Assembly (NCBI GenBank): GCA_020635435.1
Contig: JACJZU010000001.1
Location: 361,450 to 425,449 of the forward strand
Length of the DNA stretch: 64,000 nucleotides
From: Flavobacteriales bacterium
Lineage (GTDB): Bacteria > Bacteroidota > Bacteroidia > NS11-12g > UBA9320
Direction: 5' to 3'
The notes below the pieces were generated by a model. It worked only from the letters and a program-made list of their open reading frames with translations, did not search any database and was not told the origin of the DNA. Shown in pieces: positions 1,363 through 21,718 of this stretch (positions are counted from its first letter, which is position 1; every line of letters begins with the position of its first letter). The position numbers and the translations under genes are program-made.

Positions 1363-1383
1363 TTATAGTAATTTGTACTTTAA
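1363..1383. promoter_or_regulatory. 21-bp palindromic operator, copy 1 (TTATAGTAATTTGTACTTTAA), NrtR-type GT-N7-AC
   Basis: 19/21 identical to the reverse complement of 10777-10797; lies 41 nt upstream of the ATG at 1425. Confidence 0.75.
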
Positions 1384-1424: not shown

Positions 1425-2786
1425 ATGAAAAAGACAGTTACTCTATTCAGCCTGATGGCCCTTGCAAGTATGGGTTTTGCTCAGGCACCTACTACCGGAG
1501 CTCCGGATCCTATGGATGCGGACTCGAATGTGATCTCCCTGTTCAGCGGTGCATATACCAATGTTGGTGTAAACTCCTGGAGAACGGATTGGTCGTCCGG
1601 TAAGCTCACCGACACAACCATCGATGGCAACGCCATGAAGAAATACTATGATATGGGTGTTGTCGGCATTGAAACTACAGGTGCAAACCTGATCGATGCT
1701 TCTGAAATGACGCACATCAATTTCGACCTGTGGACCTCTGATGCGTCTGTTTTCAAGATCAAATTGGTTGATTTTGGTGCAGACGGGATCTACAGTCCTG
1801 CCAATATGGGTGGCGACGATTCGGAACATGAACTGGTTCTGGGAACGAACGACAACAAAAATGAGTGGATCAATTACCAAATTCCTTTGACCTTCTTCAC
1901 AGGTCTTACCGGTAAGGCGCACATGGCTCAGTATATCCTGGTTGCTGAACCATTTGGGACTGCCACCGTTTACATCGACAACATCTACTTCAGCAAACGT
2001 CCGGCTGATGCCATGCCAACAGCAGCTGCTGCAGACCCAACAGCCGATGCCGCCGATGTTATTTCGATGTTCTGCGACAAGTACACCGATGTTACTGTGG
2101 ACACCTGGAGAACCCCTTGGTCTACAGCTACTCTGGAAGATATACAGATCGATGGCAACAACGTGAAGAAATACTCAGCCGTTGGTGTTATCGGTGTTGA
2201 AGCAGTTGGTGCAAATCTGATCGATGCGAGCGAGATGGATTATTTCCACATCTCTGTATTCAGCCCAACTTTCAGTGCCTTCAAGGTCAAATTAGTTGAC
2301 TGGGGTGCCGATGGCGGTTATGCAGGTGGCGATGATACAGAACACGAACTCACTTTCGACGCGCCGGCTAAAGGCGAGTGGATCGATTACAAGATCGCGA
2401 TGTCGGATTTTACAGGACTTACCAACCGCAGCAAACTGGCACAATTCATCTTCGTTGCTGAAACCCGCGGAATTCCAACTGTTTACATCGACAACGTTTA
2501 CTTCAGCAAAGATGCCACCGGAAGCGTAAGCGATGCCGCTCAGAAGGGTATACGAGTTTATCCGAATCCGGCAACTTCAACGCTCAACATCGACCTCAAC
2601 TCGTTCAGCGCAGGTATCGCCAAGGTGGAGATCTGCGACATTCACGGAAGAACAGTACGCACCGAGGACTTGGGAGCGGATCAATTAACTCATTCCCTGG
2701 ATGTGAGCGAATTGAAATCTGGAATCTACTTCGTGAACATGAAGAGCGACGGTAATATCTTCACTCAGCGAATTGTGATCGAATAA
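1425..2786 (+). CDS. T9SS-secreted non-catalytic protein with two tandem carbohydrate-binding-like modules
   Basis: Signal peptide; two homologous repeats of about 175 aa (VISLFSGAYTNV..WRTDWS / VISMFCDKYTDV..WRTPWS; both contain GANLIDASEM, KLVD(F/W)GADG and VYIDN(I/V)YFSK); C-terminal VYPNPA...GIYFV CTD. Confidence 0.8.
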   Translation: MKKTVTLFSLMALASMGFAQAPTTGAPDPMDADSNVISLFSGAYTNVGVNSWRTDWSSGKLTDTTIDGNAMKKYYDMGVVGIETTGANLIDASEMTHINFDLWTSDASVFKIKLVDFGADGIYSPANMGGDDSEHELVLGTNDNKNEWINYQIPLTFFTGLTGKAHMAQYILVAEPFGTATVYIDNIYFSKRPADAMPTAAAADPTADAADVISMFCDKYTDVTVDTWRTPWSTATLEDIQIDGNNVKKYSAVGVIGVEAVGANLIDASEMDYFHISVFSPTFSAFKVKLVDWGADGGYAGGDDTEHELTFDAPAKGEWIDYKIAMSDFTGLTNRSKLAQFIFVAETRGIPTVYIDNVYFSKDATGSVSDAAQKGIRVYPNPATSTLNIDLNSFSAGIAKVEICDIHGRTVRTEDLGADQLTHSLDVSELKSGIYFVNMKSDGNIFTQRIVIE

Positions 2787-2807
2787 TTCACGTCGCTACA
2801 TAATACG

Positions 2808-2837
2808 AAAGGCCATCTTTTCAGGTGGCCTTTTTTT
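2808..2837. terminator. Intrinsic terminator, probably bidirectional
   Basis: AAAGGCCATC-TTTTCA-GGTGGCCTTT hairpin followed by a T run, between convergent genes. Confidence 0.85.
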
Positions 2838-2883
2838 GTGCCCGGATTTCCCAATCCAAAAGGCTATTCCTGTGCTCAGCTGC

Positions 2884-5800
2884 TTACAGATGCGGAGCGC
2901 AATGTACTTCCACCCATTCAATTTGCCCGTTTCGGAGGAATATGCTCCGGGAATCTGCCTCGTTCAACGCATTACCCTCTATACTCCGCTCCTCACCTCC
3001 CGGCTCATGCAACACAATATAGGATCGTTCAGACTGCTTGTAAACGATTGGCGTCTGACAAAACGTAAAGGCAAGACTTCCGGACTCCACAAGCATTGTT
3101 CTCCATTCAGAGCCTAATGAGTAATAGCTGAATTGCGACGGCGCCTCGAGAAATTCCTTCTTTCGAAGTATTCTGGGATCGAATTGCAGACAACCTTTTT
3201 CAATATGAATCCCCAATTCTGCCCAGCGATTGATCACGTCTTCTTTTACCTGTCCGGTCATACCGGGTTGTTGAGCACCCGCATGCATTGGCGTATGGGA
3301 ATAGGCATCTGTAGGGAATGCACCGTACAATTCCGGTGTTTTATTCACACCGATGCCTGCTCTAATTTCGTAGTAATGTTCTACCAAACGTCCGAATATT
3401 TCAGGGTTTATACCTTGTCGTTCGGCACGGTGAATGGTTTCCTGAACGGCCAGTAATAGTTTGGAGACCATATGCCAATAGATGGAACCCAGGCCTTCAT
3501 AACCGAAAAACGTACCCGATCTCCCGGTGAACGCGCTGTGATCGAACATCTGTTCGAAAAGCTCCACCACCTTCTCCCCATGGTCGAAAACCTGTCGTGT
3601 CCAACCCTCCTGTTCGAGCGTTTCCAACGTAAGACGTATATCATCCGCATTGTGGATGCCGGCACTGAAGTGGAATATCCCGTTCTCATCGCGCTCTACC
3701 AATCGTACATCTCCGGCTTCAGCCAGTTGTTCCAACAAAGGGCATGTTTCTGAAAACTCCATGGGTATGGTGTTTTTCTCGAGCATACCAGGAAGCCTAC
3801 GGTTCGGATACAACATGTAACTGTACTGATCCGGACGGTACATGGCACTTGATTTCAAGCTATCCAGTAAATAGAGCGACTCTTCAGCCGATAATAATCC
3901 CGAACTCAGAACAGCGACCTGACCTTCCAACATTTCATATAAATGCCTTACCGCGGCCTTTTCCCCCTGCAAACTGAGTAGGTTATAGGAATGATAGAGC
4001 CCGTCTTTGCGTTTATTGTGCTGTATCGTATCGTCGCAGAACCTCAAAACCAGTTCCAGAAGCGACAGTATTTTTTCGATGCGTATCTCATCTACCCTTC
4101 CAGTTAAACCGGCATAGGCCAGGGCGCGATATTGTTCTCCGACCGCCCCAAGATCATCCACCATAACCCGGCGTGCACGATCATCCATATGTTCTGCCAG
4201 CAGACCAATATGGCGCGCAAACACCTCTTCCAAAGCAACGATCATTTGCGCAACGGGTCGGTTGAATGCAATGGTTTCTGTACCGGAATCGCGCAGGAAC
4301 TGAAACAATTGTTTTACAAACCTGCGCAGGTAACAAAGCGTCACCACAGACACACCATTCCCAACCAGCGCATTGTTCGCATCGTTCCACTCCGGCCTTT
4401 GGGTATTCAGCCAGATTCCGGCCCTTGGAATGAAGTTGCTGAGCTTCGCACAGAGCATCACCATCAGTTTCTCCCCCAAATTGGCTCGCAAGGGTTCTCC
4501 ATCTTCATCCCAAACGAGTTTGCCATCGGCCCCCACTTGTTCCACCCGCGCACGGATCAGATGATCGAGATCCCGATCGAAGAGGATCGTATTCCGCGGA
4601 TCCTGAACAAGATCGTGATAGCTGCGTATGCGATAGGGCACATTAGCATACACGAAAAATGGCTTGTTCAACAAGTGCAGCAATCGATCTGGGTGAAATC
4701 GAGTGCTAAGCTCAAATAATTTGAGGAAGTAGATTATTTGATGATCCCCCCAATAACCAATGTAGGACCAGGGATCATCCTCCTCTTCCACTTCCCAGTC
4801 TATTCCATCTTTCGATATGCGATATGGATTGTATCCATCTAATGTGGACGCATTTAAGAAACGGACCACAAAGCTTTCCGTAAATTCCGGGAAACTGTAG
4901 GCAAGGGCTTCCCAATTCTGAAATATATCGCGCCAATTGCCTTCATAGTTTCTCAATTTGTTCCCCTGTGCATCGCGGGTCTCTATGGAAAAATAGTTCC
5001 ATGGCCTGCTGGGGTCTCCGTGTCGGCGGCTAAAGTAGAGCGGTAAATACTCGTAACACAAACGGATCACATCCGGATCGCCATTTTCACGAGCTTTGGC
5101 TAACAGAACTCCGAGTTCAGATTCGGGTTCCAATCCATCCCAAAAGGCCCTGTTTCGCAAGAAAACTGTATGATTAGCGTGCCGAACATGTTCCAGCAAT
5201 TCGGATCTATGAATGATGTACTCCTCGTCGAATAAGCCCCCGCGCATGATGTTGAACAGCACATTGGAATAATGCCGGGCAGTTGATAGAACATCCGACC
5301 CAAGCTGCATCCCATCACTCATCGCCACAAGTTCACGCAAGGCTCGGCCGCTGGTCTCAATATCAGCCAGAAGTCTGGCCTCCAGATCAGGCTCTTTCAG
5401 CAATTTCCTCAGGTTGTGAATGTCGCTGTGCGAGCAATTCACATCGAATACCTGGTGCCATTGACGACGTTCCCCTGGTTTAAGATCAAGGTTCAACAAA
5501 TTCAGGAATGCACCTTTTTCAGCCATTACATCAGTTTCTGTATGCACATGGGCTCCCTGTCTGAAGGCTTTCACTTGCTTCATGCTCACCAGGTATTCCT
5601 TTACATCCGCACCACACATCCACGCTGTTGTTGCAAGCAGAGCCTCACTCGGTTCAGCTTTATCTATGATCATGGAACTGAGCGCATACATGGCCAGTCC
5701 TGAATCTACATCCAATTCATTGCGCTTATAGGCGTCCACCAGCGTGCTGCGTTGCAACTGCAACTGGGAGGGTACACCCGAAGGCAGAATGTTGGAAACA

Positions 5801-6312
5801 CCGTCAAGCACTTCAACCTGCATGGCTTCATTACCGGTGGCGACGATACTTGAACTTTTTACAAAGCCGTAATGCTCGGAGAAGGTCCACATATAACTGA
5901 AAACCAGACCCAGATCGTGATTCTCTTCCTCGAAAAGTACTTTGTTGCCCGTCGCATTTTTAAGAATGTTCCGGGTGATCGTGAAATATTCATCTCCGAT
6001 AGTTGAAAAGGGCTCCCAGATCTTCAGTTTACCTGCTTCGTTGAAACGCACCAAAGTCCTGTTACCGGTTATCCCGGCCATTTCCAGGATCATATCGTCG
6101 GTATAATAAGGGAACAAGGCCGACTCGGCATTCTTTCTACCCGCAGTAAGCCCCCCATTGCTTCCAATGAACATCCAATGATCGCCTGAGCTCACCAGGG
6201 TCATCAAGAAAGGACGCATACCGGCACAGTCCGGTATCTTGTAGAATATTTCGCCATCTAACCGTACGATCTCCAGTTCACGGCTATTGATTTTTGCTTC
6301 GCTCATCTTCAA
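2884..6312 (-). CDS. Probable GH149 beta-1,3-glucan phosphorylase (cytoplasmic)
   Basis: 1142 aa, no signal peptide. Motifs HWMFIGSNGGLTAGRK, RRHGDPSRPWN, NYEGNWRDIFQNWEAL, DGYNPYRI, YEGLGSIYWHMVSKL and GAQQPGMTGQVKED match GH149 as I recall them; beta-glucanase neighbours support the call. Confidence 0.82.
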   Translation of the reverse strand: MKMSEAKINSRELEIVRLDGEIFYKIPDCAGMRPFLMTLVSSGDHWMFIGSNGGLTAGRKNAESALFPYYTDDMILEMAGITGNRTLVRFNEAGKLKIWEPFSTIGDEYFTITRNILKNATGNKVLFEEENHDLGLVFSYMWTFSEHYGFVKSSSIVATGNEAMQVEVLDGVSNILPSGVPSQLQLQRSTLVDAYKRNELDVDSGLAMYALSSMIIDKAEPSEALLATTAWMCGADVKEYLVSMKQVKAFRQGAHVHTETDVMAEKGAFLNLLNLDLKPGERRQWHQVFDVNCSHSDIHNLRKLLKEPDLEARLLADIETSGRALRELVAMSDGMQLGSDVLSTARHYSNVLFNIMRGGLFDEEYIIHRSELLEHVRHANHTVFLRNRAFWDGLEPESELGVLLAKARENGDPDVIRLCYEYLPLYFSRRHGDPSRPWNYFSIETRDAQGNKLRNYEGNWRDIFQNWEALAYSFPEFTESFVVRFLNASTLDGYNPYRISKDGIDWEVEEEDDPWSYIGYWGDHQIIYFLKLFELSTRFHPDRLLHLLNKPFFVYANVPYRIRSYHDLVQDPRNTILFDRDLDHLIRARVEQVGADGKLVWDEDGEPLRANLGEKLMVMLCAKLSNFIPRAGIWLNTQRPEWNDANNALVGNGVSVVTLCYLRRFVKQLFQFLRDSGTETIAFNRPVAQMIVALEEVFARHIGLLAEHMDDRARRVMVDDLGAVGEQYRALAYAGLTGRVDEIRIEKILSLLELVLRFCDDTIQHNKRKDGLYHSYNLLSLQGEKAAVRHLYEMLEGQVAVLSSGLLSAEESLYLLDSLKSSAMYRPDQYSYMLYPNRRLPGMLEKNTIPMEFSETCPLLEQLAEAGDVRLVERDENGIFHFSAGIHNADDIRLTLETLEQEGWTRQVFDHGEKVVELFEQMFDHSAFTGRSGTFFGYEGLGSIYWHMVSKLLLAVQETIHRAERQGINPEIFGRLVEHYYEIRAGIGVNKTPELYGAFPTDAYSHTPMHAGAQQPGMTGQVKEDVINRWAELGIHIEKGCLQFDPRILRKKEFLEAPSQFSYYSLGSEWRTMLVESGSLAFTFCQTPIVYKQSERSYIVLHEPGGEERSIEGNALNEADSRSIFLRNGQIEWVEVHCAPHL

Positions 6313-6318
6313 CTTTGA

Positions 6319-7848
6319 CTATTTAAATTGATCGTTCAGTACAATTGTTTGTATGCTTTGCGCATCCATACGGGAAGCGACAATTTTTCCATTGATCTCA
6401 ATTTCAATTTGTTCCGGTTTCTCGCTCATATTGAGCACGACCACGACAATTTCTCCACCCGGATTGCGCACCGCTGTGCTCATCAGCCGGTCTGAACTTT
6501 GTTCAATCCCAACCCTTTGCGCGCCCGGTTCAATGAATTTGCTGAAATGTGCCATGATGTAGTAAAGCGGGGTAAAATATGCCTCGTTCGAGGCAGTGTC
6601 TACAATGACCGGAGCCGTACACCAATTCTTAGCGTGATTTGGCCCCCCCTGCCGATCGAGTATCATATTCCAATCCACCCAACCCTCTACATGGCTATTC
6701 AAACAACCAATAATATCCCGTGCATAGCGATATACCGGCACATATTTCGGATGATCCTTTTTCAGGTGTTCCGGAGCCCAATCCCAACCCCAATCCGTGG
6801 CCTCTTTTTTCCAATACCAGGCATCGTCTTTCCATTTGGGGACCTCTGCATCTACACAGCCCTCCGTGTGCAGGATGTGCTTTTCGGGTCCAAGACTTTT
6901 CACATGATCCAGATTCTCAGGCATCCAGTTAGTAGTATTGCTGTACCAATGTACGGCCGTACCGTAGATCGCACTTCGTACCGCGCTGTCCTTGAGCAAA
7001 ATCTCCGACCATTTGATCAATTCTTCATCGCGGTTCTGGTCATAGACCAGGATCTTGGATGATACACCAGCCTGTTTCAGTTCCGGGGCCAGATACCGAA
7101 CCACAAAATCGGCAGTTTCTTCAGGTGTATAGTGCATGGACTCCCAATGCGAATCGTTGCCTAATGGTTCATTTTCTACCGTAAATGCCCAGATATCAAT
7201 GCCTTCTTGTTTCATTTCCAAGGCATAACGGGTAAAAAAACGAGCCCAGCTCGGATAATATTCCTTCAGAAGCTTCCCCCCAAACCATGCCTGGTTATCC
7301 TTCATCCAGGGAGGCGCTGTCCAGGGCGATGCGATCACCTTAAAACCTCGTTTGGAAACACCCTGGGCCATTTTTATCATAGGAATGATGTCGCCCCGGT
7401 CTTCATCCAGAGAAAATGAATTCAGCTGCGTGTCGCCCTCCAGCGGGACATAACTGTATGACCTCAATGAAAAATCACAACTGTTCATGTGCGTTCGGGT
7501 AAGGCTGTAGCGGGCACCATCATCTCCGAAATAGGCTTCAATGATCTCTTTCCGCAATTGCGGATCCAGGGCAAATAACAGATGTGCTGAGGATTCTGTA
7601 AAAGCACCTCCAAAACCGGTGATCTGCTGATAGACTTCAGTTGTATCCAAAATGATCCTCAACACCTCTTTTAGATCAGATGCCCGGCTTGTCGAAGTAA
7701 TTAACTTCAACTTATCGCCGGAAGCCGATGTTTGATAAATGCGGTATCCGGTTTCAGCACCATGCGGAGCGCGAACACATCCAAATCCCGCTAAAATGCT
7801 GAGAAACAGGATGATGGCAACAAGACCTGCATCCCTATTTCCGCTCAT
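6319..7848 (-). CDS. GH30 glycoside hydrolase lipoprotein (glucosylceramidase-like; probable beta-1,6-debranching glucosidase)
   Basis: GFGGAFTE, RTHMNSCDFS, SPWTAPPWMK, VENEP (acid/base), HTEGC (nucleophile), DWNMILD. Lipobox-like AGFGC. Start moved to the ATG at 7848 (ORF track starts at 7884). Confidence 0.9.
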   Translation of the reverse strand: MSGNRDAGLVAIILFLSILAGFGCVRAPHGAETGYRIYQTSASGDKLKLITSTSRASDLKEVLRIILDTTEVYQQITGFGGAFTESSAHLLFALDPQLRKEIIEAYFGDDGARYSLTRTHMNSCDFSLRSYSYVPLEGDTQLNSFSLDEDRGDIIPMIKMAQGVSKRGFKVIASPWTAPPWMKDNQAWFGGKLLKEYYPSWARFFTRYALEMKQEGIDIWAFTVENEPLGNDSHWESMHYTPEETADFVVRYLAPELKQAGVSSKILVYDQNRDEELIKWSEILLKDSAVRSAIYGTAVHWYSNTTNWMPENLDHVKSLGPEKHILHTEGCVDAEVPKWKDDAWYWKKEATDWGWDWAPEHLKKDHPKYVPVYRYARDIIGCLNSHVEGWVDWNMILDRQGGPNHAKNWCTAPVIVDTASNEAYFTPLYYIMAHFSKFIEPGAQRVGIEQSSDRLMSTAVRNPGGEIVVVVLNMSEKPEQIEIEINGKIVASRMDAQSIQTIVLNDQFK

Positions 7849-9091
7849 AAACACGCACGTGGTCCACGATAAATTCCTGCTCACTTATGTCTGGGTCTAT
7901 GCCTTTTGCACCACCCCAACCTCCTCCTACAGCCAGATTCAAGATAATATTCTGCGCTTTGTGGAATGGCCATTCCAGGGTATCCGCATTCTTATCATAG
8001 GTATAGTAACGCTTCCCATCAACCGATCCATAGATCACGTCCGGATACCATTCCACCGAATAGGTATGGAACGAATCGCGCATATGATGCACTACCGTAT
8101 CGGCACCGATCTGATTTCCCTGCTTAAAATAATAACTTCGGGTATGGCAAGTCGCATGATTGATCCCGTGTCCGGTCTCCGGATCCATCTCAAAACCGAC
8201 AGATTCCAATACATCGATCTCCCCACAATAGGGCCACGAGATCTCGTCGCGGTAAGAATCACCCAACAACCAACCGGCAGTCCAGGTACCACGTCCGCCC
8301 GGGATCTTAGCCCGGAATTCGATCTTGCCGTAGGTGAAAGAAACCTTACCCTGAGTCGTGAGCCGGGCCGAAGTCCAGGAACCGGTATTAGCGTCCTTTA
8401 CCGCCCCTATTCTCAATACACCGTTCTCAACCCGTACATTCTGTGTATCCGCAAGTGTATAATACTGAAGTTCGTTATTTCCCCAACCCCAGTTTCCTAC
8501 ATTATATGCCCACTTGTTACTATCCGGCAATCCGGAACCATCAAATTCGTCGCTCCATTTTAATTGCCATTCCGTGCCATCCATGTTCTGGATCTGATTG
8601 GTAGGTGTGGTCTTGTGCGCGTGCATCAGTTCAAGGTGTATGGATCTTAACAAGACCCGATCACGCTCGGCATGGATTCGAATGTTGTGTTTGCCTTTTT
8701 GAAGCGGAGAACCATCTATGTTTGATCCGTCCTCGTTGAAAAGCATATTACCGGTTATGTTGTACGTGCGCCCATCGGTATTATGAACGTAATCCTCTAG
8801 CCATATAAACCCCGAATCGGAACTTCCGGCAACACGCACTCGATACCTTCCGCTAACCGGAACATCCAATTCATATTCCGCCCAGGAACCGGGTGTCATT
8901 TCAAGAGCATCCTGTTCTACCCGGATGTCGCCTTCTATAGCCAAATGCTCAGAGAGTTTGAAAACCAGTCCTTGAACCGACCCTTCTCTATTGCTCTTGC
9001 ACGAAACAACCGAAAGCACCAAAAGGAGGGATGCAAACGGCATGATCGACCGGGTATATCTGCTGATGGATACCTGAAATTTCTGCATCAT
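7835..9091 (-). CDS. GH16 endo-beta-1,3-glucanase (laminarinase type) lipoprotein with N-terminal CBM-like module
   Basis: WSDEFDG, WGNNELQYYT, WPYCGEIDVLE (E-x-D-x-x-E), LNLAVGGGWGG; lipobox VVSC. Confidence 0.92.
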   Translation of the reverse strand: MMQKFQVSISRYTRSIMPFASLLLVLSVVSCKSNREGSVQGLVFKLSEHLAIEGDIRVEQDALEMTPGSWAEYELDVPVSGRYRVRVAGSSDSGFIWLEDYVHNTDGRTYNITGNMLFNEDGSNIDGSPLQKGKHNIRIHAERDRVLLRSIHLELMHAHKTTPTNQIQNMDGTEWQLKWSDEFDGSGLPDSNKWAYNVGNWGWGNNELQYYTLADTQNVRVENGVLRIGAVKDANTGSWTSARLTTQGKVSFTYGKIEFRAKIPGGRGTWTAGWLLGDSYRDEISWPYCGEIDVLESVGFEMDPETGHGINHATCHTRSYYFKQGNQIGADTVVHHMRDSFHTYSVEWYPDVIYGSVDGKRYYTYDKNADTLEWPFHKAQNIILNLAVGGGWGGAKGIDPDISEQEFIVDHVRVYERK

Positions 9092-9097
9092 CCGACC

Positions 9098-10660
9098 TTA
9101 GCTACCTACAAGGGTCTCTTCGAGTTCTTCCAGCGACTTACCCTTGGTCTCGGGTACAACGCGGATAATAAAGATCAACCCGATCGCTGCGAACAATGCA
9201 TATAGGGCAAATGTCCCGGCATTACCGAGTACCTGCAACTCATATGGGAACACCCATTGAACCACGAAACTCACCGCCGAGTTGATCAGCCCCACGAAGG
9301 AAATAGCAACCCCACGGATCGCATTCGGGAATAACTCCGAGAACAACACCCACATAACCGGACCGATCGATATGGCAAAACAGGCCACAAAACCCAGTAT
9401 ACCACTGAGGATCAGGATCGGGTTGGTGGAAATGGCAGCTGCTATGATCTCGGAAGAATGGGTAGACAACTCTTCGGCAGATAAAACCTTGGAGAGTGCC
9501 TCGTTGAATTGCAGGTCGCTTTCGAAAGTGCGATCTGCGATCGAGGCCAGTCGTTCCACCGGAACGGTGCCGGAGAGTGCCTCAAGAGATTCACTGCTGA
9601 GCGTGTAACTCGATGAATGGAAACCGTATGCGAGCAGAAATAGGCTCAGTGCCATACCGCCCACTCCAAATACGAGCAATGGCTTGCGCCCCAAACGATC
9701 GATGAATAATAAAGCAAGTATGGTAAATACCAGGTTCGTCAAGCCTACCATGATAGCCTGAATGAAAGAAGCATCCGTCCCAATTCCGGACTGTTCAAAG
9801 ATCATTGGAGCATAAAAGAACACAGAATTGATACCTGTGATCTGTTGGAGGATGGCAACCACAATACCAATGGATAATACCAAACGCATACGCTTCGTGA
9901 ATAGGTCGCGCACCCCGTGAGAAACTTCCTCAACCTTGGTTTCCATGCTCTCGCGGATCTCGTTTACGGCACGGTTCGCTTCGTTTATAGACGATAAGCG
10001 GGCAAGCACTTGTTTGGCTTCATCGAAACGCCCTTTTAGAATGAGCCACCTCGGACTGCGCGGAACGAAGAACAAACCGGCGTAATAGAGAACAGCGGGA
10101 ATGGTCTCTAAACCAAGCATCCAACGCCAGTTGTATTCGTTGAATTTCAGTTTCAACGCCCAGGGGGCATCACTTTTACCCAACTGCAGGATCAAATAGT
10201 TCGTAAAAAAGGCCAGTGAAATACCGATCACAATATTGAGTTGGTTGAAAGAAACCAGGCGACCCCGCATAGCAGGTGGTGCCAGCTCGGCAATGTACAT
10301 AGGCGCCAGTATCAGTGAAGCCCCTACCCCGAAGCCCCCGATCATTCGGGCAATTACCAAGGCAAGAAAAGTTGGAGCGAGTGCGGACGTGATCGCAGAA
10401 ACGGCATATAGGATCGCCGCATAGCGCAATACAGTACGCCTGCCAAACCGATCACTGATCGGACCGGCCACCATCATGGCCAAAGTGGAGGTGAGCGTGA
10501 GTGACGCCACCGACCAACCCAATTCAAGTTTCGTGAGTCCGAACTCGGGCTCGATGAATTTCACTACACCCGATATAACGGATGCATCAAATCCCATCAA
10601 TAAGCCCCCAAGTGCAACGATGAGAGCGATCAACATGACCACCGGATTACTGTTTTTCAT
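9098..10660 (-). CDS. MFS sugar porter
   Basis: GGLLMGFDASVISG, DRFGRR, PMYIAELAP, PRSPRWL, QQITGIN, DRLGRKPL, PETKGKSLEE. Confidence 0.95.
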   Translation of the reverse strand: MKNSNPVVMLIALIVALGGLLMGFDASVISGVVKFIEPEFGLTKLELGWSVASLTLTSTLAMMVAGPISDRFGRRTVLRYAAILYAVSAITSALAPTFLALVIARMIGGFGVGASLILAPMYIAELAPPAMRGRLVSFNQLNIVIGISLAFFTNYLILQLGKSDAPWALKLKFNEYNWRWMLGLETIPAVLYYAGLFFVPRSPRWLILKGRFDEAKQVLARLSSINEANRAVNEIRESMETKVEEVSHGVRDLFTKRMRLVLSIGIVVAILQQITGINSVFFYAPMIFEQSGIGTDASFIQAIMVGLTNLVFTILALLFIDRLGRKPLLVFGVGGMALSLFLLAYGFHSSSYTLSSESLEALSGTVPVERLASIADRTFESDLQFNEALSKVLSAEELSTHSSEIIAAAISTNPILILSGILGFVACFAISIGPVMWVLFSELFPNAIRGVAISFVGLINSAVSFVVQWVFPYELQVLGNAGTFALYALFAAIGLIFIIRVVPETKGKSLEELEETLVGS

Positions 10661-10776
10661 ATTATTCCATTCCTAATCAAAGGTGAAGAAATTTCTCCTC
10701 CCCGTCACAACTCGACCAATTCACTGAAAATCAACAACTTCACACAAATTGTTTTGTCGAATTAACTCTTTTTTTC

Positions 10777-10797
10777 TTAAAGTAAAAAGTACTATAA
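10777..10797. promoter_or_regulatory. 21-bp palindromic operator, copy 2 (TTAAAGTAAAAAGTACTATAA)
   Basis: AGTA-N5-TACT core in the divergent MFS/regulator intergenic region, just upstream of a TATGTTTG -7 element at 10809-10816. Confidence 0.78.
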
Positions 10798-10808
10798 CCA
10801 AATTTGGA

Positions 10809-10816
10809 TATGTTTG
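10809..10816 (+). promoter_or_regulatory. Bacteroidota -7 promoter element TATGTTTG for the rightward operon
   Basis: Exact TAnnTTTG match 9 nt before the ATG at 10826. Confidence 0.6.
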
Positions 10817-10825
10817 TGTAGCTCT

Positions 10826-11563
10826 ATGATCAACAATAAGTTCGGTTCTGTAGATCATTTCCTATCTGAAAACAACCTCCCTTTCGAGGATTTTTTCAGA
10901 TTCGGATTGTCGGTGGACTGCGTGATCTTTGGTTATCACCATGGTACGCTCAAGGTACTGCTCATTCAACGCGGGGCTGATCCGTTCAAATACCAATGGG
11001 CCATCCCCGGAGATCTGGTGAGCCCTGAAGAAGATCTCGATTCCTCTGCCGAACGTATTCTCCAACATCTAACCGGGTTGAAGGATATATATGTAGAGCA
11101 ATTTCACACCTTCGGACAACGGGATCGACACCCGGCCGGTCGAGTTGTAACAGTTGGTTATTTTGCTTTGGTGGAAAGTGAGAAATACCAACCGGTTGCC
11201 TCCCATTGGGCATCCGACATCGGTTGGTTCGATATTCGGAACATTCCGCCCCTGGCTTTTGACCACGACGATATTCTCGCCAAGGGAATCGAATTCCTGC
11301 GTAAAAAAGTCCGAACCGAACCGGTTGTGTTCAATTTGCTTCCGCCCAAATTCACCTTACTGGATATTCAGGGTCTGTACGAAGCACTATTGCTCGAAAA
11401 ATTCGACAAACCAAACTTCCGGAAGAAGATATTGAGCACCGGTGTACTTGTTCCCCTCGATGAGGTTCAAACCAATGTAGCCCACCGGCCCGCCAAACTC
11501 TTTCGCTTTGATCAGGAACGCTATGATACACTTAAAGGAAACACGATCAATTTTGAACTGTAA
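10826..11563 (+). CDS. NUDIX-wHTH transcriptional regulator (NrtR/AraR/XylR-like)
   Basis: SVDCVIFG..LKVLLIQR..WAIPG, degenerate NUDIX box, LAFDHDDIL, LLPPKFTL, NFRKKIL, HRPAKLFRF. ATG at 10826 preferred (ORF track starts at 10814). Confidence 0.92.
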   Translation: MINNKFGSVDHFLSENNLPFEDFFRFGLSVDCVIFGYHHGTLKVLLIQRGADPFKYQWAIPGDLVSPEEDLDSSAERILQHLTGLKDIYVEQFHTFGQRDRHPAGRVVTVGYFALVESEKYQPVASHWASDIGWFDIRNIPPLAFDHDDILAKGIEFLRKKVRTEPVVFNLLPPKFTLLDIQGLYEALLLEKFDKPNFRKKILSTGVLVPLDEVQTNVAHRPAKLFRFDQERYDTLKGNTINFEL

Positions 11564-12881
11564 CAGATACATAGGCAGCCTCATCATTGCTGTACTCAGC
11601 TTTTGCGCTTCGGCTCAACCTATAAAAGTGGAAGTCGTTCAGACCAATTCGGGGTATCAACTTCTTCGTGACGGGAAGCCCTATTATATTTTGGGAGCCG
11701 GAGGACAGGTGCATCTGGATGAACTCATCGAATGTGGTGGAAATTCCATCCGCACATGGAGTCTTGAAAACGCTCAGAAGTACCTGGATGAAGCACATAA
11801 ATACGGGCTAACCGTGACCATGGGACTCTGGGTTCAGCACGAAAGGCATGGATTCAATTACGACGATGAGATCGCCGTTAAGAAACAACTCGATTATTTC
11901 ACCCGTAAAGTAAAGGAATTCAAAGATCACCCGGCCTTACTCATGTGGGGGATCGGCAATGAGGTCGATCTGTTCTACAGCAATACCAAGGTTTGGAAAG
12001 CCATCCAGGACATAGCCAAAATGATCCACGAAGTTGACCCCAATCACCCGACCTGCACGGTGACTGCCGGTTTGGACCCCAAAGAGGTCGCTTTGGTGAT
12101 GCGCGATGCGCCGGATATTGATATCTATGGGATAAACACCTACGGTGAATTGAAACTCGCCGTAGACAGCATCGATCATTTCGGCTGGAAAGGGCCTTAC
12201 CTGATCGCCGAATGGGGTCCAGATGGTCACTGGGAGGTTCCCCTCACCAAATGGGGTGCTCCCATCGAGCAAAGTAGCAGTTCGAAAGCAAAGAGCTATG
12301 CCAAAAGATACCAATTGATACGCGCAGAGCCGAATTGTATCGGCTCCTACGTATTTCTTTGGGGGCACAAGCAGGAAACAACGGCAACCTGGTACGGCCT
12401 GTTCACGGCCGATGGCAGCAGTACCGCTCCGGTCGACGAATTGTACAAGGCCTGGAGGAATACAGCCCCGCCGAATTCATCCCCGGCCATCGAGAATTTC
12501 GGCATTCAACGGAACGGTCAACCCGTTCCCGATAACATCCTCACCTCCGGCGCCCGATTCTCCGCCTTTGCCAATTTTACCGATCCCGACAACGATGCGT
12601 TGAAATACTCCTGGGAGATCATCTCCGAAAGTACCGATACCAAGGCCGGTGGCGATGCAGAGAGCGCCCCTCCCGCCATTCCGGGGCTTATTAAGAAAAG
12701 GACTAAAGGGGCCATCGAATTCAAGGCACCTAAAAAAGAAGGAGCATACCGACTCTTCATATCCGCGAGCGACGGAAAAGGGAAAGTCGGTTACACCAAT
12801 ATACCTTTCTATGTGAGTCCCGACCTCAACAAACGCCAGGGAGTTAAACTAAAAGAACGTCAACTGGACTTCAGCTACTGA
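11508..12881 (+). CDS. Clan GH-A TIM-barrel glycoside hydrolase (GH2_C-like, possibly GH158 beta-1,3-glucanase) with C-terminal Ig-like domain
   Basis: GGNSIRTW, HPALLMWGIGNE (acid/base), GINTYG, YLIAEWG (nucleophile), YVFLWG; signal peptide ending ASA|Q. True start uncertain, possibly TTG at 11553. Confidence 0.72.
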   Translation: MIRNAMIHLKETRSILNCNRYIGSLIIAVLSFCASAQPIKVEVVQTNSGYQLLRDGKPYYILGAGGQVHLDELIECGGNSIRTWSLENAQKYLDEAHKYGLTVTMGLWVQHERHGFNYDDEIAVKKQLDYFTRKVKEFKDHPALLMWGIGNEVDLFYSNTKVWKAIQDIAKMIHEVDPNHPTCTVTAGLDPKEVALVMRDAPDIDIYGINTYGELKLAVDSIDHFGWKGPYLIAEWGPDGHWEVPLTKWGAPIEQSSSSKAKSYAKRYQLIRAEPNCIGSYVFLWGHKQETTATWYGLFTADGSSTAPVDELYKAWRNTAPPNSSPAIENFGIQRNGQPVPDNILTSGARFSAFANFTDPDNDALKYSWEIISESTDTKAGGDAESAPPAIPGLIKKRTKGAIEFKAPKKEGAYRLFISASDGKGKVGYTNIPFYVSPDLNKRQGVKLKERQLDFSY

Positions 12882-12883
12882 TC

Positions 12884-14521
12884 GTGTTCAACAAACTCCA
12901 CATAATCGATTTGAGCGTACTTGGACTGTACTTCCTCGCTGTGTTCGGAGTAGCCCTTTTCTTTTTCCTTCAGCGCAAGGATCGAAAGGAGGATAATGCC
13001 ACAGATGATTACTTCCTGGGTGGACGAGACCTGAGTTGGTGGGTCATTGGTGCATCCCTGTTTGCATCGAATATCGGATCCGAACATCTCATTGGTTTGG
13101 CAGGTGCCGGTGCGTCCGGAAATTTCGCCGCCGGTCAGATCGAAATTCTCGCCGCGTTCATGTTGTTACTGCTCGGCTGGTTCTTCGTTCCATTCTATCT
13201 GAAAAGCGGCGTTTACACGATGCCCGAATTCCTCGAACGCCGTTACGATCCATGGGCCAGAAATTACCTGAGCTGGGTATCCATAGCAGCATACGTACTC
13301 ACCAAAATTTCAGTGACCATAGCCGCCGGTGCCATTGTATTCAAAACCTTGCTGGGGATCGATTTTTGGTCCGGAGCACTCCTCATCGTTGCCCTGACAG
13401 GTCTCTACACAGTATTGGGTGGTTTGAAAGTGGTAGTCTACACAGACTTTGTCCAAATGCTCATCCTTGTTGTCGGATCTATCGCATTAACGTACTTCAG
13501 TTTGCACAAACTCGGTGGATGGGGTGAATTGGTTGCCCGAACTAAACCGAGCGACCTGAGCCTCTGGCGTGGCGCCTCGCACGCAGACTTTCCATGGACG
13601 GGCATAATTCTCGGGGCCCCGATCCTCGGCGTTTGGTATTGGTGTACCGATCAGTTCATCGTTCAGCGAGTTCTGGCAGGGAAGGATCTCAACCACGCCC
13701 GTGTCGGAACTATCTTCGGCGGTTTTTTAAAGCTATTACCTCTCTTCCTTTTCGTTCTTCCCGGAGTAATTGCTCTTGCTCTTTCTCAAGGCGACTCGGC
13801 ATCGATGCAATTCCCGAACAAAGCGGACGGATCTCCCAATTACGATGCCGCATTACCCCTGCTCACCATGTCGGTTCTGCCTATCGGATTCAAGGGACTC
13901 GTAATTGCAGGCCTGCTCGCAGCGCTTATGAGTTCTTTGTCGTCCGTGTTCAACTCGTGCAGTACACTGTTCACCATGGACATTTACAACAAGTGGGTTC
14001 CCGATGCATCTCAACGGCACTTGGTTCGGGTTGGTCAGGTTGCAACTGTAATTCTCGTGCTTCTGGGCGTTGCCTGGATCCCCTTCATGCAATTCATTAA
14101 AGGAGGTCTTTTCCAAAAATTGCAGAGTGTTCAGGCTTATATATCTCCCCCTATCGCCGCGGCATTTTTATTCGGGATATTGAGTAAGCGGGTAACTTCC
14201 AAAGCAGTTAAGATCGCCTTACTCACCGGAGCCTTTTTAGGAGTGGCGCGGCTCACCTTGGAAGTTGCGCAGATCGAACTTTCCGGGCCGCTATACGCCT
14301 TTGCTTCGATCAATTTCCTGCATTTTGCATTTCTGCTTTTTGTGTTCTGCAGCTTGATCCTCTTCTCATTTTCCAGAACCTCCGAAGAGAAACCACACCA
14401 TGAAATTGCCGATATTACCTGGAAGAAACGCAGACTTGCGTCGATTCCCCTAAATGGGAATACGATCTTATCTGCACTGTTATTTCTAGCCGTTCTAACA
14501 CTTTGGATAGCCTTTAAATGA
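12884..14521 (+). CDS. Sodium:solute symporter (SGLT-like sugar transporter)
   Basis: YFLGGR, SLFASNIGSEHLIGLAG, TMPEFLERRY, YWCTDQFIVQR, SSLSSVFNS; many TM helices; GTG start. Confidence 0.95.
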   Translation: MFNKLHIIDLSVLGLYFLAVFGVALFFFLQRKDRKEDNATDDYFLGGRDLSWWVIGASLFASNIGSEHLIGLAGAGASGNFAAGQIEILAAFMLLLLGWFFVPFYLKSGVYTMPEFLERRYDPWARNYLSWVSIAAYVLTKISVTIAAGAIVFKTLLGIDFWSGALLIVALTGLYTVLGGLKVVVYTDFVQMLILVVGSIALTYFSLHKLGGWGELVARTKPSDLSLWRGASHADFPWTGIILGAPILGVWYWCTDQFIVQRVLAGKDLNHARVGTIFGGFLKLLPLFLFVLPGVIALALSQGDSASMQFPNKADGSPNYDAALPLLTMSVLPIGFKGLVIAGLLAALMSSLSSVFNSCSTLFTMDIYNKWVPDASQRHLVRVGQVATVILVLLGVAWIPFMQFIKGGLFQKLQSVQAYISPPIAAAFLFGILSKRVTSKAVKIALLTGAFLGVARLTLEVAQIELSGPLYAFASINFLHFAFLLFVFCSLILFSFSRTSEEKPHHEIADITWKKRRLASIPLNGNTILSALLFLAVLTLWIAFK

Positions 14522-16491: not shown

Positions 16492-16495
16492 CCCC

Positions 16496-18211: not shown

Positions 18212-18223
18212 TTTCTGCAAGCC

Positions 18224-19270
18224 ATGAAACAAACAATGACAAATTCAAGATCAACTTATTCAAGAGCATCCATCCGATCCTTGATACTGCTCGGTATATT
18301 CATTTTGGCGTTCACACAATGTACCAGAACCGAAGATCCGTTTGAAGGACCAAGCATGGCCGAGATCTACGGCGAATTCGCCATCATGGAAGATTTTGCC
18401 GCCAGTACAGCGAGCATTGATTTCTCCACCGGACAGGAAATGTATTTCACGGCACGTTTCAGTCGTATGACCTCCTGGAAGATCGAGATAACCTCCTCGG
18501 GTTCCGGAAGCCGCAAAATAATTGAGGGAAGATCGCGGGTACTCGATGCTTCGAATGCCAGTTGGGACGGCAGTACCACCGTTTTCCCTGTTTTCAAACC
18601 GGGGCAATGCACAGCCGTACTCACAGTTGAAGCCGACAGCTCCACGCACCAGGCCAGCGTGAATGTCACGGGCGGACTCATTCCCGGAGGCAAAGTTGTT
18701 TCCGACTTCGAAACTCCGATCGACCCTAAATGGACACTGTTTGTTCAAACCGGCGCCAACATGAGTTTTAAACCTGAAAGTAAAATAGCTGCTCCGGTTG
18801 GTGCACAATATTTCGACATGGGCGGTGCTGTGGCCTGGGACTGGCTCATTGGGCTGTTCCATGTTCCGCAATCGGCAATGGGAGCAGATGGATTTGACCT
18901 TCCTGAGAATGCCGATCAGGTCTATTTCAACGTCGTGCTCTATCGGCCTGACACGCTGCGTAACGGTTTCCTACTGTTTCGGTTCAGTGAGGATGAGAAC
19001 GGCGATGGCACGTTCACCGAGGCGAGCGAGGATCAATACGCCGTTGAAGTGCACGACATGGATCCGGGATGGAATATCGTTTCGTTCAAATACGCCGACC
19101 TGCAATACCTCATCAACGGATCGCCCGCCACACCTAAAGGTAATGGTGTGAAAAATCCGGATAAACTGAACATGTTATCGTGCCTGTTGCTGGCCGATCC
19201 AAGCAGCGGTTACGCACAAGTGCTGATGGACTATATGGTATTCACGATCGGGGAACCTTTAAAACTGTAA
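18224..19270 (+). CDS. Lipoprotein, putative surface glycan-binding protein (Ig-like plus CBM-like domain)
   Basis: Lipobox-like FTQC; jelly-roll-like C-terminal half (VSDFE, Trp-rich AWDWLIG, acidic loop DENGDGTF, GWNIVSFKYADL). Confidence 0.55.
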   Translation: MKQTMTNSRSTYSRASIRSLILLGIFILAFTQCTRTEDPFEGPSMAEIYGEFAIMEDFAASTASIDFSTGQEMYFTARFSRMTSWKIEITSSGSGSRKIIEGRSRVLDASNASWDGSTTVFPVFKPGQCTAVLTVEADSSTHQASVNVTGGLIPGGKVVSDFETPIDPKWTLFVQTGANMSFKPESKIAAPVGAQYFDMGGAVAWDWLIGLFHVPQSAMGADGFDLPENADQVYFNVVLYRPDTLRNGFLLFRFSEDENGDGTFTEASEDQYAVEVHDMDPGWNIVSFKYADLQYLINGSPATPKGNGVKNPDKLNMLSCLLLADPSSGYAQVLMDYMVFTIGEPLKL

Positions 19271-19271
19271 C

Positions 19272-20483
19272 ATGAGGCGTTTCGGATATATAGCATTATG
19301 TGTTCTCCTGGCCTCCTGTGTTGAATTCAAGAAGGTAGATATTTTCGATTCAGGTTCTCAAGCCCCTGTACCACCGCATATCGAGAACTTCTATGCCCTC
19401 AATGTACTTTCGGATCACCTGAGTGGAGAAGTCTGGTTCACCGAAGATGCAAAATGCATAGAAGTAAGAAATGAATCCCAAACGGTGTACTCCGGCGAGG
19501 GATCCCTGTACCTCAAGTGGAACAAAACAGATGGAGGCTGCGATTGGATCGGACTTGGAATAGGCTGGAATGGCTGGGCTTCGAAAGATATGAGCGCTGT
19601 TCTCAATAAAGCTGCGATCCGCTTCAAGGCCAAATCCAACTCCGGAAAGATCAATTCCCTTCCACTAGCTGTATCCCTGGAAGACTATGGTGGAAATGCC
19701 GCATGGCTCGGATTATTCCCTGAATTCATCACATACATCGATGGAGAAGATTGGGCCACAATTACACTGCCCCTGGAGCGTTTCGGCTGGAACGAATTCG
19801 GCGCCGATGCGTCCAACATCAAGCAAATGATCATTCAATTCGAAGCATCCGGTGAGTGTTTCATCGATGCCGTGAGCGTGGTTCCTTACGAAGGTCTTCG
19901 AAATGCAACGTACCGTGCTACCATAGTTCCACTCGATCGAATTGTGGTTGATGGCGAGCTTACCGATTGGAACGGTCTACCCCAAATGGACCTTGGCGAA
20001 CATAAGGTATCGATCTGTTCCGATTCGAAAATGCTCTATGTGAGCGGCTCAATCACCGATCCCACACCAATGTTGAATAGCAGATCGGGTAAGGAAGCCT
20101 GGAATGGTGATGCCATTGAATTGGCCATCGGTGTGAATCACGAAGCCGCCGGAGGACGGACCAAACTCCTCCTGAGTGATCGGCACTTCATACTTCGGGC
20201 CTCCAACAACCCTGAATTGTACGATGTTTCCAGAGACGGGATCAAAGTTCCGGGAGCTCTCACGAAGCTCGTTCGAAGTGAAGCCGGCTATCGCTTCGAA
20301 TTCGCCATTCCACTCACCTATTTCGGGTTGACGGCCTGGTCGAAAAATGCGGCATACCCGGTCGAAATTGCCGTGGATCTTGGGGATGAATCGGGACGAA
20401 AAACACAAGTGCGTTGGAATAGCCCAAACCGTGAAGGTTTTCATAACAATCCGTCGCTTTGGGGAAATCTGGTTTTTAATTGA
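19272..20483 (+). CDS. Lipoprotein with CBM30/CIA30-like and CBM9/DOMON-like domains
   Basis: Lipobox LASC; GGCDWIGLGIGW..WATITLPLERF..IKQMIIQFE; C-terminal IVVDGELTDW..GDAIELAI..YRFEFAIP. Confidence 0.65.
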   Translation: MRRFGYIALCVLLASCVEFKKVDIFDSGSQAPVPPHIENFYALNVLSDHLSGEVWFTEDAKCIEVRNESQTVYSGEGSLYLKWNKTDGGCDWIGLGIGWNGWASKDMSAVLNKAAIRFKAKSNSGKINSLPLAVSLEDYGGNAAWLGLFPEFITYIDGEDWATITLPLERFGWNEFGADASNIKQMIIQFEASGECFIDAVSVVPYEGLRNATYRATIVPLDRIVVDGELTDWNGLPQMDLGEHKVSICSDSKMLYVSGSITDPTPMLNSRSGKEAWNGDAIELAIGVNHEAAGGRTKLLLSDRHFILRASNNPELYDVSRDGIKVPGALTKLVRSEAGYRFEFAIPLTYFGLTAWSKNAAYPVEIAVDLGDESGRKTQVRWNSPNREGFHNNPSLWGNLVFN

Positions 20484-20494
20484 AATTTTCGATC

Positions 20495-21364
20495 ATGCAA
20501 TCTTCGGTAACACTCCATCGAACAACAATCAATACCCTGGTCTTTCTGCTTTTTGCTTTAGTAGGCTGCTATCAATCCGACCCCAGGCCTGCAAGCTTCA
20601 ATACAGACACGTTCGGTCGAATTGGCGATAGCGTTCGCTTTTCAGGCTTGGATTGGACCGTTAAGATCTATGAAGACGTGATGCACGGACCTGGTCCCAA
20701 TTATTTTTCGGGAGATGAACGCGATGTGTTCCTGGATGAAAATGGTTATCTGCACATGCGCATCGCCCAACACCAGGGCAAATGGATGAGCTCGGAAGTA
20801 GTTGCCGATGAACCCACAGGATATGGAACATACAGGTTTACTATTGAAGGTATGTTAGATGCTATTCCGGATAATATCGTTCTGGGTCTGTTCACTTGGG
20901 ATAACACCACCTTCCAGGAACAGGCCAATTCGGAAGTAGATATCGAATTCAGTAAATGGGGTGATGCAAATGCCAAGCGCACACTGCAATATGGCGTACA
21001 ACCGATCAATTTTGGTCCATACTATCCGGAACGTGATTTTGTGCCGGAATACGTCCCCGGAACAATGAATGGGGTGAGCGTTCATGAATTCACCTGGACC
21101 GACAAACTGATCACCTGGAGATCCTACGCAGGAGATCGGGTAGATCCGACGCGCTTGATCGGAGAATGGAGTTTCGATCAGAGCAACCCGGGTCGCGTGA
21201 AGAACGAAGGCGGTCGATCATCCAAACCAATTGTTATTCCGGCTCCCGGCAATGAAACGTCGGCCCGGATCAACTTCTGGATCCTGACCGGAATCGCACC
21301 CGGCCCCAAGGACAATGCACGGCACGAGGTCATCATCCGCAAATTCGAATATCTGCCTCTCTAG
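20495..21364 (+). CDS. GH16 lipoprotein with an E-x-D-x-E motif (no beta-bulge)
   Basis: GPGPNYFS, GYLHMRI, GYGTYRF, LGLFTWD, SEVDIEFSKWG; lipobox LVGC. ATG at 20495 preferred. Confidence 0.75.
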   Translation: MQSSVTLHRTTINTLVFLLFALVGCYQSDPRPASFNTDTFGRIGDSVRFSGLDWTVKIYEDVMHGPGPNYFSGDERDVFLDENGYLHMRIAQHQGKWMSSEVVADEPTGYGTYRFTIEGMLDAIPDNIVLGLFTWDNTTFQEQANSEVDIEFSKWGDANAKRTLQYGVQPINFGPYYPERDFVPEYVPGTMNGVSVHEFTWTDKLITWRSYAGDRVDPTRLIGEWSFDQSNPGRVKNEGGRSSKPIVIPAPGNETSARINFWILTGIAPGPKDNARHEVIIRKFEYLPL

Positions 21365-21718
21365 AATCTACGGCATGATCTGTCAGGTTTGTCTCGTATC
21401 AGCGCAAACTACACCGATCAACTCCAAAACAACTATCTGGGCTGAAACTGAATATTAGATGGATACAGCGAACCATGCATTTTCTCCATGTCAGAGCTAA
21501 GTTCACCTGATCATTCAGACATCAGTTTAAAAAAAGGATTTTGGCATCGCTTATAAGTTGTAATAATCTTCATAAAGTAATTCCTTTGCAAAATTCCATT
21601 AATGAGACAGCTACATCGAATCATCGAAAATTAACACATTAGATCTATGACAAAAACACTTTACTCCGTAGAGAACTTACGGATATCGATTCCATCCCGG
21701 AATCAAAACCTCAAGAGC

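Follow-up and report, generated by a model that had tools for sequence, protein, structure and literature searches.

Two predicted outer-membrane barrels and their lipoproteins in a putative beta-1,3-glucan locus of a Flavobacteriales genome in which no SusD was found

In Bacteroidota, the canonical polysaccharide utilization locus (PUL) is defined by a SusC/SusD pair, encoded by adjacent susC-like (plug plus barrel) and susD-like genes. Laminarin represents one of the largest fluxes of the marine carbon cycle, and its bacterial use is usually followed by SusC/SusD markers in metagenomes and metaproteomes. The canonical laminarin PULs of marine Flavobacteriia combine SusC/SusD and a surface glycan-binding protein (SGBP) with glycoside hydrolases (GHs) of families GH16, GH17, GH30 and GH3, and sometimes with GH149 (PMC6246565, PMC6794258). 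A cluster of Cytophaga hutchinsonii, chu_1276-chu_1280, was described as an "atypical PUL" for cellulose (Zhang et al. 2025, PMC12016534); CHU_1276, CHU_1277, CHU_1279 and CHU_1280 are each required for normal cellulose use, and CHU_1277 has been tied to cello-oligosaccharide assimilation (PMC12016534, PMC5553014). This cluster was found by its authors in only three cellulolytic species (PMC12016534). In addition, Bacteroidetes "CAZyme clusters" (clusters of carbohydrate-active enzyme genes) that contain GH149 and lack susCD were noted by Kuhaudomlarp et al. (2018, PMC5827456). We describe herein a locus at positions 1363-21364 of a 64,000-nucleotide (nt) stretch of DNA (hereafter the window; assembly GCA_020635435.1, contig JACJZU010000001.1, positions 361,450-425,449 of the forward strand) from a Flavobacteriales bacterium (GTDB lineage Bacteria; Bacteroidota; Bacteroidia; NS11-12g; UBA9320). 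On balance, this locus is best read as a self-contained regulon for beta-1,3-glucan of the laminarin type, the only one in its genome, and its sole operator-linked outer-membrane component is a module of two barrel proteins, barA and barB, followed by lipoproteins.

The genes are arranged in three transcription units (Table 1): a gene for a type IX secretion system (T9SS)-secreted protein that stands alone; a leftward operon in the order major facilitator superfamily (MFS) transporter, GH16, GH30 and GH149; and a rightward operon for a NUDIX-domain regulator, GH158, a sodium:solute symporter (SSS), barA, barB and lipoproteins 1 to 3, in which neighbouring genes overlap or lie no more than 12 nt apart (between SSS and lipoprotein 3, the overlaps are of 4 nt and the gaps of 1-12 nt). 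Gene calls and domain searches (Pfam and NCBIfam) across the locus confirmed the placement of genes given in a first-pass annotation made from the sequence alone, together with the two inner-membrane sugar transporters, the dedicated regulator, the binding proteins (lipoprotein 2 and the repeats of the T9SS protein) and the two barrel proteins in the transport position. Its count of five CAZyme-like genes held for four (GH149, GH30, GH16 and GH158), while the fifth, lipoprotein 3, is a candidate only, with an NSEVDIE motif and no family match. Domain scans of positions 1-23000 of the window revealed no Plug, TonB_dep_Rec or SusD domain, as that annotation had also stated; the locus is therefore not a canonical PUL.

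SusD was likewise not found anywhere in the 2.89-Mb assembly (5 contigs; completeness 78.9% by a CheckM-type estimate), either with the models PF07980 and PF14322 or by tblastn with the SusD of two relatives. PUL predictors anchored on SusCD would, as the first-pass annotation had expected, miss this locus. The genome contains 18 genes resembling TonB-dependent transporters (TBDTs), none of which (0/18) reaches the cut-off of the SusC model, TIGR04056, and no glucanase gene lies near any of them. GH149, GH30, GH16 and GH158 are each present in a single copy. Two TonB-dependent receptor-like genes lie within the window away from the locus, at 34956-37595(-) and 61621-63999(+); they match the SusC model in its N-terminal part only and have no SusD neighbour.

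The operator of the locus is an imperfect palindrome, TTAWAGTA-N5-TACTWTAA, with exactly two matches in the 2.89-Mb genome, both at promoters of the locus, and none elsewhere in the assembly at 0-1 mismatch. An operator-bearing susCD pair elsewhere, set beforehand as part of the observation that would count against an alternative uptake system, therefore did not appear. With a NUDIX domain, a C-terminal winged helix and a palindrome at its putative target promoters, the regulator belongs by sequence to the NrtR/AraR type, and it would act through this palindrome on all three transcription units. In many related loci the same motif precedes the regulator, MFS, GH158 or T9SS genes.

The hallmarks of a TBDT are a 22-strand barrel and, in front of it, a TonB box and an N-terminal plug of about 150 amino acids. 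Neither a Plug domain nor a conserved TonB box was found in barA or barB by Pfam or in alignments, and by these hallmarks neither protein is a TBDT. AlphaFold2 (AF2) models, built from alignments of 24-25 sequences, predict that both are plug-less outer-membrane beta-barrels of about 22 strands. The barB model (predicted local distance difference test score (pLDDT) 86.5, predicted template-modelling score 0.82) has 22 long antiparallel strands, the first at residue 29, right behind the signal peptide. The barA model (pLDDT 70) has approximately 22-24 strands, preceded by a proline-rich stretch of about 35 residues that is not conserved. Neither protein has a Pfam or NCBIfam match above threshold (sub-threshold matches are limited to C-terminal OMP_b-brl, DUF3575 and Porin_4) or a match in PDB sequence and profile searches. 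A fold search of the PDB with the models retrieved generic porins, TBDT barrels, AlgE, usher pores and MtrB, at TM-scores of no more than 0.44, so no specific structural relative of barA or barB can be named. Narrow profiles of barA and barB aligned with a probability of just 7.6%, whereas broad profiles that include remote members (A5 for barA and A6 for barB) aligned in hhalign with a probability of 97% (E 8.8e-11, 488 columns). The two barrels are thus paralogs that arose by an ancient duplication. No further paralogs of the module were found in this genome.

The order barA-barB-lipoprotein 1-lipoprotein 2-lipoprotein 3 (the last with an ExDxE-type motif), with GH158 heading the operon, agrees with the published description of the atypical PUL (PMC12016534). 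Common to both clusters are a barrel, a second outer-membrane protein, a beta-sandwich SGBP-like protein, a bimodular SGBP-B-like protein with carbohydrate-binding modules (CBMs) (375 amino acids in chu_1276-chu_1280 and 403 here), and a glycanase; neither cluster contains SusC/SusD, and in both the genes share one orientation and co-regulation by the substrate applies. The differences are in substrate (soluble beta-1,3-glucan here, crystalline cellulose there), in regulator (a NUDIX/NrtR-type repressor here, an extracytoplasmic function sigma factor there), in the attachment here of GH158, SSS and the GH149/GH30/GH16/MFS arm, and in distribution, with about 380 species here as opposed to three. 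From gene order and the published description, we lean toward regarding the module as a beta-glucan version of the two-barrel, two-SGBP architecture of chu_1276-chu_1280. Metagenome-assembled genomes (MAGs) of Cytophagales and Cytophagaceae hold barA relatives of 26% identity in the same module.

With the canonical laminarin PULs the locus shares its substrate, GH16, GH30, GH149, CBM-bearing surface proteins and MFS/SSS importers; however, it has no TBDT or SusD, and its outer-membrane genes encode two plug-less paralogous barrels and lipoproteins. The clusters of PMC5827456 likewise lack susCD and bring GH149 together with GH16/GH30 and sugar transporters, but only the missing susCD is reported there, and a barrel/lipoprotein module is undescribed. 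Plug-less, TonB-independent barrels in oligosaccharide catabolic operons are also known as LamB, ChiP and OprB, and LamB and chitoporin are among the fold matches. Those porins are homotrimers of 16-18 strands without dedicated lipoproteins, whereas the barrels here number two, differ from each other and have about 22 strands each, and the TM-scores of barA and barB to any porin are 0.3-0.45. No description of a beta-glucan barrel module was found in literature searches on laminarin, GH149, GH158 and SusCD-independent uptake.

Close homologs of barA (>500) and barB (>280) are all labelled "hypothetical" and come mostly from marine and freshwater MAGs carrying Flavobacteriales, Salibacteraceae, Schleiferiaceae or Cryomorphaceae labels. 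With each species represented by one genome, barA was found to be encoded in 380 species, and the synteny figures below rest on the best 80 loci among them; the only cultured carrier among these 80 species is Phaeocystidibacter luteus LMG 25704, in which the locus (L060) is complete. The order GH158-(SSS)-barA-barB-lipoprotein 1-lipoprotein 2-(GH3)-lipoprotein 3 is kept in 80/80 loci, usually with the NUDIX regulator. GH158 directly precedes barA or SSS-barA in virtually all of them, and lipoprotein 1 stands directly behind barB in all 80 and in the remote modules described below. The GH149/GH30/GH16/MFS arm may lie on either side of this core, and SusCD is almost never found within 10 kb of the module. 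The first-pass annotation had proposed a synteny of SSS, both barrels and lipoproteins; its barrel/lipoprotein core stood, but SSS is present in only 27/80 loci and is thus not a defining partner, which leaves GH158-barA-barB-lipoprotein 1-lipoprotein 2 as the invariant string.

In an even sample of the phylum, the locus was found in 3/400 additional genomes; one of the three belongs to another class, and all are of the beta-glucan type. When 1.84 billion representatives were searched with the barA profile, 318 clusters at 50% identity matched it. Remote relatives of barA, at 23-28% identity, belong to the same module of four genes, with proteins of about 680, 565, 340 and 320-440 amino acids, and adjoin genes for GH20 and T9SS proteins, for a GH2 mannosidase, GH27 and a CBM4_9 protein, or, in a Cytophagaceae MAG, for a GH18 chitinase. 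The presence of such modules beside different glycosidase genes suggests that the module is substrate-swappable. In two genomes barA is broken: by an in-frame TGA in G182 (contig C35, locus L004, 5664-7743(-)), the locus of which also has SusCD, and into five pieces by TGA and TAA stops in G061 (contig C9, 23364-25359). These could be pseudogenes or assembly errors.

A mechanism for glucan use can be proposed from these components. The T9SS protein with its tandem CBM-like modules and surface lipoproteins 1 and 2 would capture the glucan, which the GH16 lipoprotein, and perhaps lipoprotein 3, would nick by endo-cleavage. Oligosaccharide chains would then cross the outer membrane via barA and barB, which probably form a hetero-complex with the lipoproteins, without a need for TonB energy. 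In the periplasm, GH158 would cut the chains processively to laminaribiose, and GH30 would take off beta-1,6 branches; SSS and MFS would move the products over the inner membrane, and cytoplasmic GH149 would release glucose-1-phosphate by phosphorolysis. All three units would be governed, via derepression, by the NUDIX/NrtR-type regulator on its operator. Transport of glucan through the barrels is suggested because the module is the sole outer-membrane element of the regulon, because it is always flanked by a periplasmic glucanase that acts on chains on one side and by SGBP-like lipoproteins on the other, and because, by analogy, the architecturally matching chu_1276-chu_1280 is needed for cellulose use (PMC12016534; PMC5553014).

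Several observations weigh against the barrels having simply taken the place of SusCD. The congener G063 (VMDK01000016.1), the only other species of the genus, has a collinear locus (57-80% identity) with a SusC (1026 amino acids; CarboxypepD_reg, Plug and barrel), a SusD (494 amino acids; PF07980 and PF14322) and a PKD/CBM11 lipoprotein encoded directly upstream of the T9SS homolog. This lipoprotein is paralogous to the T9SS protein. Both SusC and the T9SS gene have an operator-like site in front of them, at distances of 35 nt and 32 nt, respectively. In G180 and G182, SusC, SusD, a 291-amino-acid protein, GH16, (T9SS protein), GH158, barA, barB and lipoproteins 1 to 3 form one string. Orthologs of this SusCD triad (61-70% identity) also occur in G021 and in the closed genome G052: in the latter they are separated from the barrel locus by 1 Mb, and in the former they belong to a classical laminarin PUL that shares the regulator, SSS and operator. 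Among 191 genomes of the order, any SusD hit is not anticorrelated with barA (39/61 barA-positive and 80/130 barA-negative genomes). Against the proposed mechanism as a whole, the barA model is only moderately confident, and the fold matches of both barrels are too generic to specify channel size and gating. Finally, with the assembly rated 79% complete, there is some room, if little, for a SusCD pair in unassembled DNA.

The coexistence of SusCD and barrels in relatives indicates that the two systems are not mutually exclusive, and that the barrels are a separate module that is kept where SusCD is missing, not a like-for-like swap; their task may be one that SusCD does not perform. The proposal in the first-pass annotation of an alternative outer-membrane architecture was therefore upheld as regards a sole operator-linked outer-membrane module in a genome where SusD was not found, but the phrase "in place of SusCD" is tempered by close relatives in which SusCD adjoins this locus or forms part of it. 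The most economical reading is that the SusCD operon was lost in this lineage, and the evidence tilts slightly toward the twin-barrel module being the only dedicated outer-membrane route left in it. In the same 191 genomes, strong SusD hits are rarer with barA (13/61 versus 66/130; Fisher p 1.3e-4, with a threshold set post hoc and phylogeny uncorrected). Near-complete barA-positive genomes without SusD include G054, G060, G087, G088 and G096, several of them at 96-100% completeness. Most genomes of family f2 contain a single gene with weak similarity to SusD (about 465-500 amino acids; e.g., G137:C3:76146-76412 and G142:C1:179469-179735), which matches positions 155-243 of PF07980 only (E 1e-9 to 1e-16) and lies >50 kb from the barrel locus where linkage is visible; it may represent a distinct SusD-like subfamily with another role.

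A broader proposal is more doubtful and is offered tentatively: the twin-barrel and lipoprotein module might be a second, general TonB-independent glycan importer of Bacteroidota, able to take over from SusCD. Lineages that, like this one, lost the laminarin SusCD operon and retained the module would then be natural knock-outs that show its sufficiency; the module would thread long beta-1,3-glucan chains into the periplasm to a processive GH158, and relatives of it next to GH18, GH20, GH2/GH27 and cellulase genes would handle other polymers in the same way.

An unlikely alternative, although the strongest of those considered, is that the barrels serve as an outer-membrane scaffold that anchors or presents surface lipoproteins and glucanases, while small products enter by general porins. 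A scaffold-type role has been proposed for the effects of CHU_1276/CHU_1277 on cell-associated beta-glucosidase, and both the coexistence of the module with SusCD in relatives and the two lipoproteins always found behind the barrels fit such a role. However, two 22-strand barrels are far bigger than anchoring requires, GH158 has an ordinary signal peptide and is of a chain-working type, which implies that chains enter the periplasm, and SusD-free genomes retain the module along with periplasmic and cytoplasmic glucan enzymes.

It is improbable that glucan fragments are imported by a TBDT elsewhere, lacking a SusD partner, with the barrels as accessories. The genome does have its 18 TBDT-like genes, and in Alteromonadales a lone TBDT is known to accompany GH149 in some clusters (the gammaproteobacterial "type II"; PMC5827456); nonetheless, these TBDTs all fall below the SusC cut-off, no paralog of GH16, GH30, GH158 or GH149 lies near any of them, and no copy of the operator was found outside the locus at 0-1 mismatch. 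Equally improbable is that a laminarin SusCD operon sits in the unassembled part of the genome and that its SusCD-free state is an assembly artefact. A completeness of 78.9% and the orthologous triads in G063, G052 and G021 would allow this, but the assembly is in 5 contigs and at 2.89 Mb exceeds the 94%-complete congener (2.4 Mb), the position of SusCD in G063 is contiguous here and occupied by other genes, and other barA-positive genomes at 96-100% completeness are likewise without SusD. Export of glucan or another polymer by the barrels is very improbable: the fold matches that include the exporter AlgE and usher pores are generic, and the operon is catabolic, with glucanases, a phosphorylase, uptake symporters and a sugar-type repressor, and with no glycosyltransferase found in the locus by domain scans.

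New here are the genome-wide absence of SusD hits, the single-copy glucan enzymes, the locus-confined operator, the processive-type relative of GH158, and SusCD beside or inside the locus in relatives. A conserved beta-glucan regulon without SusCD escapes surveys based on SusC/SusD, and because it is carried by about 380 mostly uncultured species, glucan consumers would be under-counted by such surveys. The carriers comprise marine and freshwater species of Salibacteraceae, Schleiferiaceae, Cryomorphaceae-like and other groups. The locus also ties the obscure Cytophaga cellulose-uptake cluster to a much wider, putatively substrate-swappable module. The congener with SusCD and the present genome without it provide a natural comparison, and P. 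luteus is a culturable carrier in which the question of TonB-free glycan passage can be addressed.

Table 1. Genes and operators of the putative beta-1,3-glucan locus (positions are those of the window)
Feature	Position	Strand	Evidence
Operator 1, TTATAGTAATTTGTACTTTAA (TTAWAGTA-N5-TACTWTAA)	1363..1383	.	42 nt upstream of T9SS gene
T9SS-secreted 453-aa protein, two tandem ~150-aa CBM-like modules and Por_Secre_tail	1425..2786	+	Por_Secre_tail E 6.8e-18
GH149 beta-1,3-glucan/oligosaccharide phosphorylase, 1142 aa, cytoplasmic (signal peptide absent)	2884..6312	-	NF058639, PDB 6hq6
GH30 lipoprotein (…LAGFGC…)	6319..7884	-	Glyco_hydro_30 E 7e-71, GH30C domain
GH16 lipoprotein (…LSVVSC…), endo-beta-1,3-glucanase type	7835..9091	-	Glyco_hydro_16 E 6e-19
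MFS sugar transporter, inner membrane	9098..10660	-	Sugar_tr E 2.7e-109
Operator 2, TTAAAGTAAAAAGTACTATAA	10777..10797	.	divergent MFS/regulator intergenic region
NUDIX-domain transcription regulator, NrtR/AraR type	10814..11563	+	NrtR_WHD E 1.8e-23, AraR_C E 8e-14, NUDIX E 5e-11
GH158 beta-1,3-glucanase, 457 aa, signal peptide (ASA-QP)	11508..12881	+	PDB 9oro, 6pal
SSS, inner membrane; stop overlaps barA start (ATGA)	12884..14521	+	SSF E 1.6e-84
Barrel A (barA), 657 aa	14518..16491	+	AF2 barrel model, signal peptide, terminal Phe
Barrel B (barB), 571 aa	16496..18211	+	AF2 barrel model, signal peptide, terminal Phe
Lipoprotein 1, 348 aa (…AFTQC-TRTED…)	18224..19270	+	lipobox; position kept behind barB
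Lipoprotein 2, 403 aa, bimodular CBM-like (SGBP-B-like), lipobox LLASC	19272..20483	+	CBM9_1 E 4e-11, CBM30 E 1.2e-4, SGBP_B_XBD E 3.1e-4
Lipoprotein 3, 294 aa, NSEVDIE motif	20480..21364	+	motif in alignment

The family assignment of the four CAZymes is certain. GH149 scored 1579 bits against NF058639 (cut-off 1150) and matched PDB 6hq6 with E=0 across residues 11-1137, which places it in the family. GH158, in which Pfam sees only a weak GH2_C, is similar over its full length to PDB 9oro (E 3.5e-99 over residues 35-436) and to 6pal (E 6.8e-70). By sequence, its closest solved relative is the endo-processive GH158(Pro), an enzyme described as processive and disaccharide-releasing (PMC13195107), and its location is probably periplasmic. 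The GH30 lipoprotein, judged from its family, is probably a beta-1,6-glucosidase that removes branches. No catalytic domain was found in the T9SS protein, both repeats of which match residues 320-470 of the SGBP-like lipoprotein of G063, where Pfam calls CBM_11. Lipoprotein 1 has no match in Pfam or in PDB sequence and profile searches. Lipoprotein 3 also has no family or PDB match (Pfam, NCBIfam and PDB searches), but in its alignment S151 and E152 are invariant and D154 and E156 nearly so, a motif of the GH16 ExDxE type that makes it a candidate GH16-like glycanase.

The genes that flank the locus have no operator in front of them. On the left, between a Crp-like gene and the locus, 663-1244(+) encodes a protein of 193 amino acids that carries a signal peptide, ends in ...GVRF and has no Pfam or NCBIfam match; it is probably a small outer-membrane barrel, and is not kept there in the congener. 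The right boundary is a 282-nt gap, in which a scan for a terminator or promoter found nothing, and directly beyond it 21647-22975(+) encodes a LamG (Laminin_G_3) protein with SprB repeats, which is not kept beside related loci, save for a LamG match in L050.

Related loci vary in the genes next to the regulator and the MFS transporter. In L023, L024 and L028 (about 1700-6100), GH149 is replaced by a cytoplasmic protein of about 916 amino acids (MQNTLDKVGIDWKF...) beside the MFS gene, which may belong to another glycoside phosphorylase family. In L037, L044, L063, L068 and others, proteins of 800-1400 amino acids and small ones of 324 are encoded upstream of the locus and divergently from the regulator gene. 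The large divergent proteins were considered as SusC and rejected, being either T9SS/CBM-type (VTFxVDMN...NGTFNxWC) or cytoplasmic 916-amino-acid proteins. Those of the former type, like the 324-amino-acid ones, start with a conserved (N/D)VTF.VDMN...NGTFN.WC module, some with weak matches to CBM48/AMPK1_CBM, and this is probably a glucan-binding module on T9SS proteins.

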